Virus record (IMG/VR): IMGVR_UViG_3300005535_000012
Location: 1-39,583 of that record
From: a virus
DNA length: 39,583 nt
Direction: 5' to 3' (one strand)
The notes under the pieces are model-generated. The model did not search any database. It was not told the DNA's origin and worked only from the letters and a program-made list of their open reading frames with translations. Positions 1 through 39,583 of the stretch are shown here, piece by piece (the first letter of the stretch is position 1; each line of letters begins with the position of its first letter). The translations under genes and the position numbers were made by a program.

Positions 1-60
1 GCCCCGCTCGAAGGCACGGGCAATGGGGCGGATGAGCGGGCGATGCGCGTAACTGATGGC
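1..60. repeat. Terminal duplication: nt 1-60 identical to nt 39524-39583 (circular closure / assembly overlap)
   Basis: Compared base by base; both copies read gccccgctcgaaggcacgggcaatggggcggatgagcgggcgatgcgcgtaactgatggc. An ORF stays in frame across the join. Confidence 0.95.
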
Positions 61-28915: not shown

Positions 28916-29458
28916 TCACTGCTCCTTTTTGAGTCGCCGAACCTCGGCGCGGTAGTAAGTTTTCATCTGCTCGATCTGCGTGAGCGTGAGCTTCAGGGGC
29001 TCATGCTTGCCTTCGAGCCATTCGACCTTTTCGAGCCCGATTTTCTCGATCAGATTGATGCGGTATGCGGTCAGGTTTCCTGACAGGTACAGGTTGCAAG
29101 GTGCGCACTGGAGATGGACGTTCAGCGGCTCGAACCGCAGTTCCGGCGCCGATCCAACCGACCGGTAGTGCCCTGCATGCCACCGTCCCTTGTGCATCCG
29201 GCCGCAGGAAATGCAGGGATGGCCGGCGTCACGCAGCCTCACCCAGGCGTTGAACGCGTCTTGCAGATCGGCCAGATGCTCGCCGCGGCTCTTTGCCTTC
29301 TGCCGCGCCTCACGGACATCACGCGCGGCCTTCTTCGCAGCCAGCCGGCGCGTCCACTCGAGCGCACAAGGCACTGAACACGCTTTCGACATGCTCGAAA
29401 TTGGCGTGAAATCGCGGGCGCAGACCTTGCAGCGCTTGGGCTTAAGCGTGCGGATCAC
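28916..29458 (-). CDS. ninG: NinG/Rap-family recombination endonuclease, 180 aa (start moved to GTG 29458)
   Basis: KRCKVCARDF...CSVPCALEW, then PCISCGRMHKGRWHAGHYRSVGSAPELRFEPLNVHLQCAPCNLYLSGN. GGAGGTGG SD. The N-terminal extension in the track is a different small gene in another frame. Confidence 0.75.
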   Translation of the reverse strand: MIRTLKPKRCKVCARDFTPISSMSKACSVPCALEWTRRLAAKKAARDVREARQKAKSRGEHLADLQDAFNAWVRLRDAGHPCISCGRMHKGRWHAGHYRSVGSAPELRFEPLNVHLQCAPCNLYLSGNLTAYRINLIEKIGLEKVEWLEGKHEPLKLTLTQIEQMKTYYRAEVRRLKKEQ

Positions 29459-29607
29459 TTGTCCACCTCCGTGAAGTGCTTCGGCGCACGCGTCGGTCCC
29501 ACGACGGGTGCCTTGCGCTCCTTCTGCGGCACGCTCAGGATTTTCTTGATCTGCTCCAACTGCTCTGCTGCCGTCTTCGTCGGCTGCCGGCGCTTGTTCT
29601 GGCTCAT
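29455..29607 (-). CDS. Small basic protein, 50 aa (MSQNKRRQPTKTAAEQLEQIKKILSVPQKERKAPVVGPTRAPKHFTEVDK)
   Basis: ATGA overlap with the replisome-organiser stop and GTGA overlap with the NinG start. Confidence 0.5.
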   Translation of the reverse strand: MSQNKRRQPTKTAAEQLEQIKKILSVPQKERKAPVVGPTRAPKHFTEVDK

Positions 29608-30509
29608 GCCGCCTCCGATGCGTTGATGGCCTCGATGATGCGAGCCTTGAACTGGGCTTCCGTCTCTCCCGGGCGAGCATCCGATATCCCAAGTTCACGC
29701 GCCTTCGCGCTCATCGCCTGAGGCGTCAGAGTCCACGATGTCACGGCCTTCGGCCTCTGCTGCGCCCCGCGCACGTCGACAGACGCTGCATCCGCCTTCC
29801 AACCATTCAGCTTTTTCACGATGTACGCAACGGACATGGATTCATTCGGCTTCGCCTTCCGCGCTTCAGCACAACATGCCTCCAGGGTGTCGATATCGAT
29901 CTGTTGCTCAGCAAGGGCGATCACGCTCGGGTGGAACGGCGTTGCATCGATCGAGTGCTTCCGCAGCACCATCGAAACTCGCGCGCTCGCGCTAGGTGTA
30001 TGTGTAGGTTCTTCTCTTCTCTTCTCTTCTCTGTGCGTTACAGTAACGTTATCAGTAACGTTATTTTCGGCCTTGTTTTTCTCCCTGAATCGGGCTTGCC
30101 GTTCCGCGTTTTTCTTCTTGGCAGTGTCCTCAGGATCGACGTTTTGATCCTCGAAGAACCTAGGCAGCACAAGGCCTTCGTCGGTTTCAATCGCCCACCC
30201 CACCGCTACCATTGCAGCCCCGAAACCAGGCAAATCAGCGATGTCATCCAACACTGCGGAGGTGACGCCGCGGTAGATGAGGTCGTCGTTTTCGCGCTTC
30301 CCTCGCAACCGCATAACACCCCACACCGCTACAAGAGCACCTACCGTAACGTTACGCATAACGTTACGCGTAACGGTCATTTGTCGTTGGCAGTGCTGAT
30401 CTACGAACATCGAAAGATCGCTATCAGGTGCCATCAGCAGATCGGCCATTACGCTCACCTTGGGATCTCGATAGAGATCGGTGCGCATCTTGATCCAGTC
30501 ACCGGCCAT
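29604..30509 (-). CDS. Replisome organiser / replication initiator-like protein, 301 aa
   Basis: N-terminal MAGDWIKMRTDLYRDPKV... is typical of the phage replisome-organiser N-terminal domain. The gene contains palindromic iteron-like repeats. Confidence 0.55.
   Translation of the reverse strand: MAGDWIKMRTDLYRDPKVSVMADLLMAPDSDLSMFVDQHCQRQMTVTRNVMRNVTVGALVAVWGVMRLRGKRENDDLIYRGVTSAVLDDIADLPGFGAAMVAVGWAIETDEGLVLPRFFEDQNVDPEDTAKKKNAERQARFREKNKAENNVTDNVTVTHREEKRREEPTHTPSASARVSMVLRKHSIDATPFHPSVIALAEQQIDIDTLEACCAEARKAKPNESMSVAYIVKKLNGWKADAASVDVRGAQQRPKAVTSWTLTPQAMSAKARELGISDARPGETEAQFKARIIEAINASEAA
30009..30063. repeat. Candidate origin elements, cluster 1: (TTCTC)x4 polypyrimidine tract, then two TAACGTTA palindromes 12 bp apart, then a T-rich stretch
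   Basis: ttcttctcttctcttctcttctct at 30009-30032; TAACGTTA at 30044-30051 and 30056-30063; half-site CGTTA at 30036-30040. Confidence 0.45.
30347..30376. repeat. Candidate origin elements, cluster 2: TAACGTTA x2 plus half-site TAACGG at 12-bp spacing
   Basis: TAACGTTA at 30347-30354 and 30359-30366; TAACGG at 30371-30376. Confidence 0.45.
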
Positions 30510-31103: not shown

Positions 31104-31307
31104 CTAGATAACACCTGATGCGAAAAGCTCCATCAGGCGCTTCAGGCGAAGGTATGAGGGGTTCTTGAGTTGGCCCCGGCCGAGCTTGTGGATCCAGGCA
31201 TAGCTGTATCCCGTCACCTTGGCGATTTCCCGATGTTTGCCGCGCCGCTTGACTAGCATCCGCTGGCATTCGTCGATCAGGGACGGCGTTTCAGGGGTGA
31301 TTGGCAT
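31104..31307 (-). CDS. Cro/CII-like HTH regulator, 67 aa (start moved to ATG 31307)
   Basis: GGAGGA 7 nt upstream of ATG 31307. HTH-like HREIAKVTGYSYAWIHKLGRGQ. First gene of the minus-strand operon, divergent from the XRE gene. Confidence 0.6.
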   Translation of the reverse strand: MPITPETPSLIDECQRMLVKRRGKHREIAKVTGYSYAWIHKLGRGQLKNPSYLRLKRLMELFASGVI

Positions 31308-31330
31308 TCTCGCTTCCTCCATTTCATATC

Positions 31331-31392: not shown

Positions 31393-31689
31393 GTGGAAGC
31401 GATAAAACTGCGTCAGATCATAACGGCCAACGTACATGAAGCCATGGCGAGGATGGATATAGCCTCTATCACCGAGCTGTCGCGGCTCGCGAATATCCCT
31501 CAGACGACGTTGAACGCGTACCTGTCGCCTAACAAGGAGGGCCTTCCGAGCGTACGGCATCTGCTCCAGATCGCTGCCTTCTTCGACCTCGAGCCATGGG
31601 AACTGCTTTGTCCGGTGGGGGAAGCGGAGCGCGCGGTGATAAAAAGCATGGAGGCCTGGATGCGATCAAAAGGAGATCGAGAGGGATAG
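31393..31689 (+). CDS. XRE-family HTH regulator (repressor-like), 98 aa (GTG start)
   Basis: GAGGAG SD. HTH ITELSRLANIPQTTLNAYLS with the flanking helices typical of XRE domains. Confidence 0.7.
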   Translation: MEAIKLRQIITANVHEAMARMDIASITELSRLANIPQTTLNAYLSPNKEGLPSVRHLLQIAAFFDLEPWELLCPVGEAERAVIKSMEAWMRSKGDREG

Positions 31690-31700
31690 CAAAAAACCGC

Positions 31701-31729
31701 TTGCTATGTTCGTAACGGGTTGCTATAGT
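31701..31729 (+). promoter_or_regulatory. Sigma70-type promoter for the plus-strand accessory operon
   Basis: TTGCTA (31701-31706), 17-nt spacer, TATAGT (31724-31729). Overlapped by two copies of the AACNGNTTGCTAT motif. Confidence 0.55.
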
Positions 31730-31779: not shown

Positions 31780-31992
31780 ATGAAATACGCCGCCGCACTA
31801 CTTCTGATCGCCCTTGTGGCGTGTACGTCCCAACCGACACCTTGGGTTGACCACGGTATCGGCGGTAACGGTGGTCATGTCTCTGCTGGTGCCCGCGGCG
31901 GTCGTAACGCTACGGCTGGCGGGATGGGCCATAGCGGTAACGGCGGTCGTGGATCGGTTGGCGCTGCTTCTGGCGGCATGGGCCGGAGGTAA
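31780..31992 (+). CDS. Gly-rich basic lipoprotein, 70 aa
   Basis: Lipobox MKYAAALLLIALVAC/TSQ; GAGGAG SD. The mature part is rich in GG/GN/GR repeats. Confidence 0.7.
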   Translation: MKYAAALLLIALVACTSQPTPWVDHGIGGNGGHVSAGARGGRNATAGGMGHSGNGGRGSVGAASGGMGRR

Positions 31993-33457: not shown

Positions 33458-33583
33458 ATGCGAGCCCACATTTACATGCGCTTCGGACTTTGGGTAACGA
33501 GGCTGGAAGATGAAACAGCGCTGCCATTCCGGACCTTCGAAGGCGCGGCAGCTTGGGCAAAACGGATTCACGAAGGTAACTAA
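33458..33583 (+). CDS. Small ORF, 41 aa (MRAHIYMRFGLWVTRLEDETALPFRTFEGAAAWAKRIHEGN)
   Basis: Strong AAGGAG SD 6 nt upstream; ends 11 nt before the pentapeptide-repeat gene. Confidence 0.5.
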   Translation: MRAHIYMRFGLWVTRLEDETALPFRTFEGAAAWAKRIHEGN

Positions 33584-33594
33584 CCGAGGAAGAC

Positions 33595-34353
33595 ATGAAG
33601 GTTGAGATCAAACATTGGATTACCGGCGCAGTTCTGTTTGCTCATAGCGCAGATGTGAACGGAATCGGGATCGCTCTGAGGGCTGCTATTGAATCCGGCG
33701 CGGACCTGCGCGACGCGGACCTGCGCGGCGCGAACCTGTACGACGCGAACCTGCGCTGCGCGAACCTGCGCGGCGCGAACCTGTACGACGCGGACCTGCG
33801 CGACGCGAACCTGCGCGGCGCGAACCTGCGCGGCGCGAACCTGCGCGGCGCGAACCTGCGCTGCGCGGACCTGCGCGACGCGGACCTGCGCGACGCGAAC
33901 CTGTACGACGCGAACCTGCGCGGCGCGAACCTGTACGACGCGAACCTGCGCGGCGCGAACCTGCGCGGCGCGAACCTGTACGACGCGAACCTGCGCGGCG
34001 CGAACCTGTACGACGCGAACCTGCGCGACGTTAAAAACCTTGTCTTCCAAATAATTCCTGAGGAAGGCGCATTCATCGGCTGGAAGAAACTCAAAGGCGG
34101 CGTAATCGCGAAACTGGAAATCCCGGCTGACGCGAAACGTAACTCCACACCTATAGGCCGGAAAAATCGCGCGGAATTCGTCCGAGTGCTGGAATTGTTC
34201 GGCGCGGATGAAACAGTAAGTCAGCATGACGGCGAGACGGTCTATCGAGTTGGTGAGATCGTACGTCCGGATTTGTACAACGACGACATTCGCCTCGAAT
34301 GTACGAATGGGATCCATTTCTTTATCACGCGCGCCGAAGCCGAGGCGTACTGA
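33595..34353 (+). CDS. Pentapeptide-repeat protein with a distinct C-terminal globular domain, 252 aa
   Basis: 22 consecutive A(D/N)L(R/Y)(D/G/C) pentapeptides; GAGGAAG SD. The C-terminal ~108 aa are non-repetitive. Confidence 0.85.
   Translation: MKVEIKHWITGAVLFAHSADVNGIGIALRAAIESGADLRDADLRGANLYDANLRCANLRGANLYDADLRDANLRGANLRGANLRGANLRCADLRDADLRDANLYDANLRGANLYDANLRGANLRGANLYDANLRGANLYDANLRDVKNLVFQIIPEEGAFIGWKKLKGGVIAKLEIPADAKRNSTPIGRKNRAEFVRVLELFGADETVSQHDGETVYRVGEIVRPDLYNDDIRLECTNGIHFFITRAEAEAY
33700..34029 (+). repeat. 22 x 15-nt near-identical tandem repeat (coding, in frame)
   Basis: The unit gcgRacctgYRcKRc varies only at positions 4, 10, 11, 13 and 14. All third-codon positions are invariant. 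Confidence 0.95.
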
Positions 34354-34372
34354 CACCACCCAGAGGGACCAC

Positions 34373-34675
34373 ATGAACGAGATCAAGCAGACATCGCTTA
34401 AACCAGTCGCTGTCATCGGCTCGGGCTGGCAACTTTTCTATGTCGGCACAGGGTCAATCGCGTCAATCGTGTATCAACACAGCCTGAAGATCGGCGATGT
34501 ACTGTACGCAGGCGCATTGCCCGCTGCGTCTGCCGACATGGCCGAGATACTCGAAATCATCTCGGCCGATGCAGATGCGGGCGAGATCCTGCTGACCTCC
34601 GGCATCCGCATGGTCCTCGACGCCGCGCTGATCAAGGCAGGGCGTAAGGAAGCGCCGGTTAGGACGGGAGAGTGA
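34373..34675 (+). CDS. Hypothetical protein, 100 aa (start moved to ATG 34373)
   Basis: GAGGGA SD. The upstream part of track ORF 34226-34675 overlaps the pentapeptide gene. Confidence 0.55.
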   Translation: MNEIKQTSLKPVAVIGSGWQLFYVGTGSIASIVYQHSLKIGDVLYAGALPAASADMAEILEIISADADAGEILLTSGIRMVLDAALIKAGRKEAPVRTGE

Positions 34676-35533: not shown

Positions 35534-35721
35534 AAGACGACGGGCCCGATTACTGGATGGCACAACAGGCGCAAGAAGAACTGGAATGGCATGAAGAGCG
35601 GAGAAAGAATCATGAGCGAGAAGAAAACCGGATTGCAAAGGCTGCGGGAGCCCTTCCCGGAACATCAGATCAGCCTCCTTCCCAAGCCCTACAAGCGGGA
35701 TTCCCCGAAGGGGAATTGTGA
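35530..35721 (+). CDS. Possible 63-aa ORF overlapping the annealase start by ~110 nt (uncertain)
   Basis: ATGA-coupled to the upstream ORF, but it has no stop before 35721. Only the first ~27 codons are non-overlapping. Confidence 0.3.
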   Translation: MKDDGPDYWMAQQAQEELEWHEERRKNHEREENRIAKAAGALPGTSDQPPSQALQAGFPEGEL

Positions 35722-36286
35722 TGTGTGTGGTGGCTGGCATGGTCTTCCTGCCCTCCATTTGAGCTATGTCGGCCATGCAGCACTTACCGACCGGTTGCTT
35801 GAATGCGATGAGAACTGGACTTGGGAGCCGCTGGCACTTGGCCCCGATGGATTGCCATTGCTGGATCGTGACGGCGGCATGTGGATTCGCCTGACGGTCT
35901 GCGGAGTGACTCGTCTGGGGTATGGCGATGCGCAAGGAAAGACTGGGCCCGACGCCACGAAAGAACGGATCGGCGATGCACTGCGCAACGCAGCTATGCG
36001 CTTCGGTGCCGCGCTTGATCTGTGGCACAAGGGTGATCTTCACGGTCCTGAAGAAGGCGACGGCGAGGAAAATACTAAGGCAGAAACACCTCACCAAGGA
36101 TTGGCAGCTTCTTCCTTGAAAACCCATGTCGAGGCCATCAAGAAAGCTCCCGATATGAATTCCCTCAAGTCTCTTCACGCAAGCGCATACAAAGCGGCGC
36201 ATGCGGTTCGCGACACGGTCGCAGAAGAGATCATAAATGAAGCGAAAGACGCCCGAAAACTTGAACTGGAAGAGGTTACATCATGA
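35612..36286 (+). CDS. Rad52-superfamily single-strand annealing protein-like, 224 aa
   Basis: LQRLREPFPEHQISLLPK...LSYVGHAALTDRLLECDENWTWEP...KERIGDALRNAAMRFGAALDLW fits the Rad52/Sak-type annealase pattern. GGAGA SD before ATG 35612. Confidence 0.55.
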   Translation: MSEKKTGLQRLREPFPEHQISLLPKPYKRDSPKGNCDVCGGWHGLPALHLSYVGHAALTDRLLECDENWTWEPLALGPDGLPLLDRDGGMWIRLTVCGVTRLGYGDAQGKTGPDATKERIGDALRNAAMRFGAALDLWHKGDLHGPEEGDGEENTKAETPHQGLAASSLKTHVEAIKKAPDMNSLKSLHASAYKAAHAVRDTVAEEIINEAKDARKLELEEVTS

Positions 36287-36786
36287 ACGCTATCACTCTC
36301 TACGCTCTGGCTGGCGAATACAAGGACGCCGCCGACAAGCTGGCAGAAATGGAGTTGGACGATCAGACAATTTCCGATACGTTGGAATCGCTTTCCGGCG
36401 ATCTCGAAGCCAAAGCAACGAACACGATCATGCTGGTTCGCAACCTCGAAGCGACTGCCGAGCAGATCAAAGCGGCCGAGAAAGCCATGGCCGAACGCCG
36501 CAAGGCATACGAGGCGCGAGCCACCCGAATCAAGCAGTACGTCATGGACAGCATGATCTTCGCCGGCATTACCAAGATCGAATGCCCGCTGTTCAAGATC
36601 GCGATACGCGACAACCCGCCGTCAGTCGTGATCGATGACGAGAAGCAGATTCCGCAATCTTATCTGACCGATCCGCTTCCGCCGCCTCCTGCTCCCGACA
36701 AGAAGCTGATCGCGCAGGCTATCAAGGACGGCTGTGAAGTGCCGGGAGCGCACTTGGAGCGTGGCCAGCGCTTGGAGGTTAAGTGA
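36283..36786 (+). CDS. Siphovirus Gp157-family protein, 167 aa
   Basis: Coiled-coil N-terminal half, then ...ITKIECPLFKIAIRDNPPSVVIDDEKQIPQSYL, as in Gp157-like proteins that accompany phage annealases. Confidence 0.55.
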   Translation: MNAITLYALAGEYKDAADKLAEMELDDQTISDTLESLSGDLEAKATNTIMLVRNLEATAEQIKAAEKAMAERRKAYEARATRIKQYVMDSMIFAGITKIECPLFKIAIRDNPPSVVIDDEKQIPQSYLTDPLPPPPAPDKKLIAQAIKDGCEVPGAHLERGQRLEVK

Positions 36787-39141: not shown

Positions 39142-39583
39142 CGCCGCATCCCCTGTCGAGCAGCACGAAGCAGCGCCGGCCGAGGGTTGTACGCCCGAAG
39201 ATGCACGGATGCTGCGGGCAGCGAATCACTCGCTTGCAGTGGAGAATGAAGCGCTTCGCCGAGCGTTGCGCCCGTTCGCTCGAATCGTATCCACCGACCG
39301 CCTTTCTTGGGCAATCGTCGAGTATTGCATTGATGGCGACCCAGAGAAGCAGACGTTTCAACGGCCGCAGATGCAGCGCGCATTCAATCGAGTGGCTGAT
39401 CTCCTTCGCGAGAACGTACCGAACGGCATTCCGTCCGACATCAATCCAGACGATCTGCCGGATTGGGTCAAGAACGGGAAACCTCCCGCACAGCCCGAAT
39501 CGCCGACGCAACCCGCACCGTCCGCCCCGCTCGAAGGCACGGGCAATGGGGCGGATGAGCGGGCGATGCGCGTAACTGATGGC
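39134..39583 (+). CDS. 5' part of the junction-spanning ORF (continues at nt 61 of the window after circularisation)
   Basis: AAGGAG SD, ATG 39134, 8-nt overlap with the upstream gene. It is open to the window end and absent from the ORF track because it has no stop. Confidence 0.7.
   Translation, partial: MDNAASPVEQHEAAPAEGCTPEDARMLRAANHSLAVENEALRRALRPFARIVSTDRLSWAIVEYCIDGDPEKQTFQRPQMQRAFNRVADLLRENVPNGIPSDINPDDLPDWVKNGKPPAQPESPTQPAPSAPLEGTGNGADERAMRVTDG
39524..39583. repeat. Second copy of the 60-nt terminal duplication
   Basis: Identical to nt 1-60. Confidence 0.95.

Follow-up and report, generated by a model that had tools for sequence, protein, structure and literature searches.

Evidence for ongoing concerted evolution of a copy-number-variable 15-nt array in a viral Pentapeptide + DUF5758 gene

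The IMG/VR virus record IMGVR_UViG_3300005535_000012, analysed here over its whole 39,583-nt length (hereafter the window), carries on its plus strand a complete coding sequence (33595–34353, 252 aa) for a pentapeptide-repeat protein with a C-terminal DUF5758 domain (PF00805, 159 bits; PF19062, 81.7 bits). At the centre of this gene lies a homogenised array of 22 units of 15 nt (33700–34029), encoding A(D/N)L(R/Y)(D/G/C) pentapeptides, whose copy number varies between near-identical genomes. We consider it very probable that the array undergoes concerted evolution, in which out-of-register recombination or replication slippage between the 15-nt units would repeatedly duplicate, delete and recombine them, leaving the arrays of each lineage uniform in a codon backbone peculiar to it, with a number and order of units that change much more rapidly than the DNA on either side. 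Our best explanation as a whole, which joins this mechanism to a reading of the protein's function, is one we favour with moderate confidence. The gene is an added member of a known, little-studied family whose hypervariable behaviour has barely been described before.

The protein is of a cytoplasmic type and has three parts, a division that the first-pass annotation had read from the sequence and that the list of open reading frames (ORFs) and Tandem Repeats Finder bear out. These are an N-terminal cap (aa 1–35, 33595–33699, seen in an AlphaFold2 model), the 22 units (aa 36–145) and a C-terminal part of 107 aa (aa 146–252, 34030–34350), whose identity had gone unrecognised and which profile matching (Pfam, 4e-24), together with an AlphaFold2 model, identifies as the catalogued domain DUF5758. 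Tandem Repeats Finder reports a single array at 33699–34030 with a period of 15, 22.1 copies and zero indels. Cutting it in frame yields six unit types (ANLRG ×8, ANLYD ×6, ADLRD ×4, ANLRC ×2, ADLRG ×1 and ANLRD ×1) and confirms that only five unit nucleotides vary, namely 4 (A/G), 10–11 (CG/TA) and 13–14 (GA/GG/TG), with all third codon positions fixed and each between-unit difference altering residue 2, 4 or 5 of A(D/N)LXX, the three that face outward. A Shine-Dalgarno-like GAGGA read from the sequence (33586–33590, plus strand) lies 4 nt 5' of the ATG, and the gene starts 11 nt beyond the stop of the upstream ORF at 33583, a tight, operon-like packing.

Across its 110 codons the array uses a single codon for each amino acid (P ~1e-44, taking the phage's own codon usage as the null), and chance is excluded as the source of this uniformity. 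Codons are mixed in the non-repeat part of the same gene (Ala: GCA 3, GCT 5, GCG 5, GCC 2). The G+C content of the array is 74%, against 54.5% for the genome. Three ORFs run through the array in other frames (33580–34416, minus strand, 278 aa; 33642–34148, minus strand, 168 aa; 33689–34054, plus strand in the +2 frame, 121 aa); we rejected them as genes, their low-complexity repeats (VQVRAAQVR, TRTCAARTC) being shadows of the G+C-rich array.

The first-pass annotation had predicted that such an array would expand and contract in frame, and had proposed comparing repeat number and order among related phages and metagenomic variants; on that comparison both vary. The closest homologues of the window protein are 252, 237, 277, 227, 212, 267, 217, 257 and 207 aa long, all differences being multiples of 5. 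An identical protein (P0001) is encoded on 8 contigs, and two further proteins with identical termini (P0002 and P0004) have 19 and 17 units; across the alleles of 22, 19 and 17 units the N- and C-terminal coding DNA is identical. The genome bearing the 19-unit allele (L075) shows one single-nucleotide polymorphism relative to the window over 10,105 + 5,554 + 4,830 nt of flank (~20.5 kb), a G/T difference at 29352 within a NinG-like gene. Written as unit strings, the window array reads abycgyagggcaaygyggygyd and the 19-unit array abycgyagggcaaygygyd, so that the latter is the window array minus one copy of a 45-nt tandem duplication ((ANLRG-ANLYD-ANLRG) ×2, units 15–20, 33910–33999). The 17-unit allele corresponds to a 75-nt deletion between two 59-nt direct repeats (33894–33952 and 33969–34027), which are the longest internal exact repeats found by sequence comparison within the array.

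Isolate genomes behave in the same way. Two Burkholderia multivorans isolates carry 21 and 14 units in differing order, with a unit-level edit distance of 17 and 0 mismatches in the 423 nt of the gene's unique parts, while their neighbouring genes are 92–98.6% identical. The Salmonella phages L and ST64T have been described as differing at two sites only, one of them a 15-bp repeat deletion in orf232. Among cultured Salmonella phages we found orf-232 spans of 699, 684, 594, 864, 789 and 519 nt, together with 566 and 641 nt versus 611 where the alignments cover the same part of the query, again in 15-nt steps; span changes are −105, −15, +165, +90, −180, −45 and +30 nt, and two listed spans (566 and 518 nt) that fall off the 15-nt steps come from partial-coverage alignments. 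The orf-232 array ranges from ~3 to ~26 units among these phages. In Caulobacter phage GB2A a deletion of 375 bp (25 × 15) has been noted in a pentapeptide-repeat gene relative to near-identical isolates. Unit number spans 1–33 across the family, and the array is, by virtue of copy-number polymorphism in unit multiples between near-identical genomes, an in-frame variable number tandem repeat of a contingency-like kind.

It is highly improbable that mis-assembly produced the close likeness between units or the variation in their number. The case for such an artefact is that this phage's three alleles are all known from short-read metagenome assemblies, some of which may be re-assemblies of related samples, that the 17-unit allele, a deletion between the 59-nt repeats, sits on a contig of 2.6 kb, and that 33 of the 36 intragenic contig ends in homologues fall inside the array (e.g. 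L006, L015, L124, L132, L060), whether through repeat ambiguity or through mixed alleles within a sample. Against it, the 22-unit array is base-identical in the window and four other assemblies (ENA and JGI; two pipelines), and the longest internal exact repeat of 59 nt is below the k of 141 given in the contig names and, by assumption, below the read length. Isolate genomes moreover behave likewise, as do cultured phages sequenced one by one, Sanger-era records among them, and a collapse of repeats would be unable to create lineage-specific backbones.

Across 115 Pentapeptide + DUF5758 loci we distinguished 61 codon backbones (GCG-AAC-CTG, GCC-AAT-CTG, GCT-AAC-CTT and GCA-AAT-CTC among them), with 34 loci standing at a same-codon fraction of 1.000. 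Because each lineage has its own backbone, the uniformity is made within arrays and does not stem from a universal codon preference; codon selection alone was rejected as its cause, as lineages are fixed for different codons. The within-array variants of 19 homogenised backbones comprise 3 synonymous and 105 non-synonymous changes. The exclusively non-synonymous pattern of the window array taken by itself, with its five variable sites, is weak (p ~0.1, a rough estimate), and the excess appears strong only when taken across independent lineages, where it suggests that surface heterogeneity is kept by selection and all else is swept. These comparisons support concerted evolution that is ongoing and family-wide, and not a one-off recent amplification; of the two origins offered earlier, recent amplification or concerted evolution, it is the second that stands. 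This family-wide combination, in which arrays are homogenised lineage by lineage, vary in excess at the surface and are hypervariable in length beside a constant DUF5758 module that giant viruses also have, is undescribed in the searchable literature, in which the behaviour of the arrays is met only in isolated remarks (on L/ST64T orf232 and on Caulobacter GB2A).

The restriction of variation to a few codon positions for surface residues also recalls targeted hypermutation by a diversity-generating retroelement (DGR) or a similar system. This mechanism is effectively refuted: there is no template repeat, all 20 unit matches lying inside the array, no reverse transcriptase appears among the recorded Pfam annotations (~20 kb) or in a Pfam scan of ten large ORFs of the window, and the variable sites are not adenine-specific, with whole units gained and lost.

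The domain assignments are well above threshold (PF00805, 159 bits against a cut-off of 20.2, E 1.7e-47; PF19062, 81.7–85 bits against 26.9, aa 154–249). An AlphaFold2 model of the full protein, a check that the first-pass annotation had also proposed, shows a pentapeptide beta-helix, with a predicted local distance difference test (pLDDT) score of 89.4: the beta-helix is regular, its cap consists of a hairpin and a helix, and the C-terminal domain stands apart from it. The modelled cap (strands E2–7 and E13–18, helix H24–33; pLDDT 86–93) is predicted to close the end of the beta-helix, and a signal peptide in the N-terminal stretch is unlikely because homologues carry charged residues there. 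In the array the model places one strand residue per 5 aa, and a Foldseek search with it returned pentapeptide beta-helices only, at a root-mean-square deviation (rmsd) of 0.8–1.6 Å over 97–120 columns (2g0y and 3n90 at 0.8 Å). The predicted fold of the array is thus a right-handed quadrilateral beta-helix with four units per turn and ~5.5 turns.

Modelled alone, DUF5758 is an all-beta domain with a C-terminal helix (pLDDT 90.8, predicted template modelling score 0.83). The family alignment shows invariant K, R, Y, the C and H of E-C-x-x-G-I-H-F-F, and G; the window protein keeps the motifs WKK, IP..AKR, Y.VG and EC..GIHFF, and reads RKNR at the RKCR motif. The Asn concerned is aa 191 (34165–34167), standing where Cys occurs in 90% of a diverse alignment, and it is found throughout the Burkholderia clade. 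Foldseek and profile searches of the domain against the PDB gave no meaningful relative, an NCBIfam scan of it gave nothing, and the PHROG matches of the protein are all of “unknown function”. Membership of NCBIfam “Alr5209” was not counted, its cut-off being passed only through summed repeated stretches.

The MfpA and Qnr structures have established that a turn of the pentapeptide beta-helix takes four units and rises by ~4.8 Å, and each extra unit would therefore turn the C-terminal domain by 90 degrees relative to the cap. Unit counts modulo 4 show no preference (38, 34, 25 and 23), and unit order carries no period-4 signal (lag-4 z = 0.0), on which ground face-specific surface patterning was rejected. 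Unit-type matches at lag 6 exceed those of shuffled arrays (z = 3.7; 76 unique arrays, L001–L202), a signal that probably comes from a few arrays with six-unit higher-order duplications. The array contains 16 Asp and 16 Arg and has a net charge of 0, as had been counted earlier, and each of its faces stays within −1 to +1; the isoelectric point (pI) of the protein is 6.13, and array charge across the family runs from −16 to +7. Since the faces are neutral and neither a modulo-4 preference nor a period-4 order is seen, a shaped DNA mimic is unlikely, as is a rigid specific interface, and the geometry favours either a surface acting by composition or avidity or a tolerant spacer, with DUF5758 as the core.

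A tolerant spacer is what would be expected if the array were only a slippage-prone linker or rod, its changes in copy number and order a mere by-product of neutral instability and its surface differences simply tolerated. We regard this as somewhat unlikely, while recognising how much it accommodates: unit order that is random save for the lag-6 bump, counts uniform modulo 4 that range from 5 to 33 and fall to 1–3 in some DUF5758 proteins, and the orthologues of mycobacteriophages, whose degenerate, interrupted arrays (same-codon fraction 0.49–0.63; 281 aa in three isolates) are stable and show that the protein works without homogenised repeats. Drift with homogenisation should, however, clear synonymous and non-synonymous variants alike, whereas 19 independent homogenised lineages keep 4–19 unit types that differ almost only at outward-facing residues, and the same unit types persist between phages whose flanks have diverged by ~20%.

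The charge and geometry also bear on the idea, which we judge improbable, that the protein modulates gyrase or topoisomerase as a DNA-shaped mimic, in the manner of Qnr, MfpA, AlbG and McbG. The beta-helix fold is the same, and phage-encoded gyrase inhibitors are known and have been reviewed (PMC10886550). The window protein nevertheless falls far under the NCBIfam cut-offs for MfpA (NF000349, 48.5 bits against 360) and Qnr (NF033086, 45.8 bits against 240), so the analogy drawn earlier does not extend to family membership, and both are distant in a PDB sequence search. The electronegative, DNA-like surface of the Qnr/MfpA type is absent from its neutral array (net charge 0, protein pI 6.1), and neither array length nor face register is conserved in the family. 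The C-terminus, moreover, is modelled as a 107-aa beta domain and not as the short dimerisation helix of Qnr and MfpA. Nor does a protein of pI 6.13 with a neutral array resemble the acidic DNA mimics of the Ocr/ArdA type, to which Pfam and PHROG scans of the protein showed no sequence relation.

Pentapeptide + DUF5758 is, by its profile matches, an already catalogued architecture with thousands of members. At E ≤ 1e-10 we found at least 7,838 homologues, almost all of which carry the two domains together, and an exhaustive profile search gave 7,344 DUF5758 clusters at 50% identity. In GenBank phages, the full protein has matches in 436 records and the C-terminal DUF5758 in 160, ~152 of the latter being Cjw1-like mycobacteriophages, in which “pentapeptide repeat protein” is the usual annotation. 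In most of the 150 best profile hits no more than a few residues separate the end of the domain from the C-terminus. Pentapeptide arrays of 4–31 units precede it in 124 of the 148 top representatives; most of the remainder have 1–3 units, a few have BspA-like leucine-rich repeats or repeats of another kind, and a single one lacks any N-terminal part. Fusions of DUF5758 to GLRGDIS heptad repeats, BspA-like leucine-rich repeats and other solenoid-like repeats also occur (P0191, P0229, P0249, P0261, P0137). In the viral structure library BFVD the DUF5758 fold (template modelling score 0.65–0.81) is found at the end of phage and giant-virus proteins that contain HEAT, MORN, pentapeptide or RING modules, and stand-alone proteins occur too; the MORN, HEAT and RING fusions are found in giant viruses, and Acidovorax phage ACP17 has at least 4 paralogues. 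These surveys make DUF5758 the part of the family that stays constant, and it is probably the functional core as well. A literature search on DUF5758 returned no papers, and literature on anti-defence, DNA-mimic and mycobacteriophage pentapeptide proteins yielded no functional study of the Pentapeptide + DUF5758 family.

The genome around the gene is that of a complete P22-like temperate Burkholderia phage. The first 60 nt of the window (1–60) are identical to its last 60 (39524–39583), from which it follows that it is a complete circular assembly of ~39,523 bp, and a related contig of 39,610 bp is a circular permutation of it. Hallmarks of a P22-like podovirus are present (P22 coat, portal, SLT ejection protein and pectate-lyase-like tailspike), and a comparison of the first 25 kb showed small patches only shared with Burkholderia phages. 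Megablast of the repeat-gene region against GenBank phages gave no match, and a scan of species-representative genomes found distant relatives only, no Burkholderia among them. An exact-pattern scan of metagenome contigs for the junction just 3' of the array found none, that collection evidently being without samples bearing this phage.

The repeat gene lies between a repressor/Cro immunity switch and recombination genes. On the leftward arm of the switch stands a repressor-like helix-turn-helix (HTH) gene (31104–31322, minus strand; PHROG 6223, transcriptional repressor, 9e-7), and divergent from it a Cro/repressor-like HTH gene (31393–31689, plus strand; PHROG 4583, 7e-8; a weak Pfam HTH_26 match) is the first of the rightward operon that holds the repeat gene. 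This operon continues through many small ORFs of no known role to a single-strand annealing protein (35612–36286, plus strand; PHROG 3290, 1.6e-54) downstream of the repeat gene, a Gam-like / Sipho_Gp157 end-protection protein (36283–36786, plus strand; PHROG 253, 2.8e-50; PF05565) and an HNH nuclease. The homologue occupies the same slot in B. multivorans prophages, where it follows a CI/S24 repressor and precedes ERF/Gp157, and that of mycobacteriophage Cjw1 lies just downstream of a divergent repressor; this synteny supports the early-operon placement that had been suggested for the gene. Promoter and terminator scans of the window gave nothing above chance; the only rightward promoter-like site is at 31701–31729, with the count of such sites not above chance, and none lies immediately 5' of the repeat gene.

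A gene so close to the immunity region might instead be a prophage defence or superinfection-exclusion factor that guards the lysogen, the reverse of counter-defence. In Salmonella phage ST64T the analogue lies between ral and gene 17, the latter annotated as a superinfection exclusion protein, and pentapeptide domains occur in at least one defence system, Hailong (PMC13586616). We hold such a role to be quite unlikely. Searches of PADLOC-DB with the full protein and with the C-terminal domain matched 0 defence families, and the operon-like packing, with no promoter-like site directly upstream, likewise counts against it. The gene is also carried by the Synechococcus phages B3 and B23, which we take to be lytic.

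Taken together, we propose that DUF5758 would be the functional core, an effector or docking module, and the pentapeptide rod a replaceable, fast-evolving accessory surface on which selection would keep a small alphabet of variants in play. Its partner would most plausibly be a fast-evolving host or rival-phage protein met during early infection, and its role then host takeover, counter-defence or exclusion, exerted through composition or avidity and not through a precisely shaped interface. We advance this conflict-related binding function tentatively, as a minority expectation; the decoy or anti-defence role suggested by the first-pass annotation may also hold. A broader and rather unlikely extension is that the DUF5758 proteins of phages and giant viruses together make up a very large class, so far unrecognised, of viral proteins that are modular and serve in conflicts, each with a conserved C-terminal effector or docking domain aimed by an interchangeable repeat scaffold, the pentapeptide scaffold acting in many phage lineages as a built-in diversification cassette. 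Unit shuffling by recombination would then keep producing beta-helices of new surface and length, able to keep pace with host defence or rival-phage proteins that evolve fast; if true, an early cytoplasmic protein would here be diversified by a recombination-based counterpart of DGRs or variable lymphocyte receptors.

Several observations weigh against our preferred explanation. The 19- and 17-unit alleles come from short-read assemblies, which often break in such arrays. The stable, degenerate arrays of mycobacteriophages imply that hypervariability is not required for the function of the family, and the random order with respect to faces, with the modulo-4 uniformity, fits a neutral tolerant spacer equally well. 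No experiment or partner is known, from our literature search, for any member of the DUF5758 family. Finally, the Burkholderia-clade relatives (L001, L003, L006, L120, L123) share with the window array a backbone (G, C, G, C, C at the third positions) and several 15-nt unit types that are exactly alike, at the same time as 41–51% of same-amino-acid codons differ in the C-terminal domain; judged from these sequences, the backbone is frozen or exchanged across the clade, which simple neutral concerted evolution does not predict. Host-optimal codons with third-position G+C (GC3), GC-biased conversion or gene exchange between co-resident prophages could each be the source, and exchange is favoured because the gene termini are identical in otherwise diverged B. 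multivorans prophages.

The array is the fastest-changing site in this phage genome, and similar sites exist in many other phages. Such arrays are useful as strain markers, and they carry a warning for assembly and annotation, since contigs break in them and they spawn shadow ORFs. They also offer a clean natural example of concerted evolution within a protein-coding solenoid, and the lineage backbones, the escaped orthologues and the clade-frozen backbone together make a testbed for homogenisation, surface selection and exchange between phages. With ~7,300 clusters at 50% identity, DUF5758 stays constant while the repeat scaffolds joined to it are interchangeable, in viruses of amoebae as in those of bacteria, and its genes lie in early operons beside anti-restriction and recombination genes; this constant-partner role and early-operon setting make it a sensible target for anti-defence and host-takeover screens. 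For protein design, the natural arrays are relevant as near-perfect consensus solenoids of freely variable length.

Two further features of the genome lie outside the repeat gene. Directly after the Cro-like gene, a 70-aa ORF (31780–31992, plus strand) starts MKYAAALLLIALVACTSQ, which is lipobox-like, and continues into a Gly-rich tail; it may encode a small lipoprotein, perhaps with an exclusion or envelope role. Short tandem repeats at 30010–30064 and 30347–30375 (TCTTC ×4.6, CGTTATCAGTAA ×2.5 and TAACGTTACGCA ×2.4) lie within a 301-aa minus-strand ORF (29604–30509), and these iteron-like repeats may mark a replication origin inside a replication gene.

Among the closest known systems is orf232/Orf-232 of the P22-like Salmonella phages L, ST64T and ST104, a gene that has its early-operon slot and type of phage in common with the window gene and that lies, in those phages, in the early left operon between ral and gene 17. 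Like the window array, that of ST64T Orf-232 is homogenised (15 units, same-codon fraction 1.0), and it shows in-frame 15-nt copy-number differences among near-identical isolates. It differs in its backbone (GCC-GAC-CTG-CGC-GGT), in a longer N-terminal region and in a C-terminal domain unrelated to DUF5758, a remote kinship between the two C-termini having been rejected (hhalign probability 0.9%). The ST64T gene (L122, 11086–11784, minus strand) overlaps the end of ral, and several phages related to it have an annotated HNH endonuclease where their sequence matches the ends of orf-232 (18% of the query covered). Another of these systems is the Cjw1 gp59-type protein (Kostyavirus, ~152 records), which has the same Pentapeptide + DUF5758 organisation at ~44% identity and the same position just downstream of a divergent repressor, but whose array is degenerate and interrupted, with all units distinct, in a gene of constant length (846 nt) in three isolates.

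The window protein and Qnr, MfpA, AlbG and McbG are alike in arranging A(D/N)LXX units as a right-handed quadrilateral beta-helix. Qnr and MfpA dimerise through a helix at the C-terminus, Qnr bears loops that are characteristic of it, and the degenerate repeats of these proteins keep a fixed length, whereas the window protein scores far below the family cut-offs and has a neutral surface, a DUF5758 end and an array of variable length. The HECT ligases NleL and SopA and the proteins PipB and PipB2, all recovered here as sequence or structure matches, likewise join an N-terminal beta-helix scaffold to a distinct C-terminal domain; they differ in being type III effectors, secreted by bacteria, with known C-terminal activities, non-homogenised repeats and no DUF5758. 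DotG/IcmE of Legionella and Coxiella, also among the sequence matches, has a pentapeptide region whose length varies greatly between species beside a conserved C-terminal domain (PMC6761968), but it is an inner-membrane component of type IVB secretion, and its described variation is between species. The closest solved sequences are designed consensus proteins and cyanobacterial proteins (Np275/276), at 1e-29 to 1e-38, with Qnr/MfpA reached only at ~1e-9. The designed beta1 solenoids (4yc5, 4yfo) give the best PDB sequence match (7e-38; rmsd 1.6 Å over 120 columns), and although they are synthetic, with no biological role and no C-terminal domain, the likeness is such that the natural array is essentially a consensus pentapeptide design.

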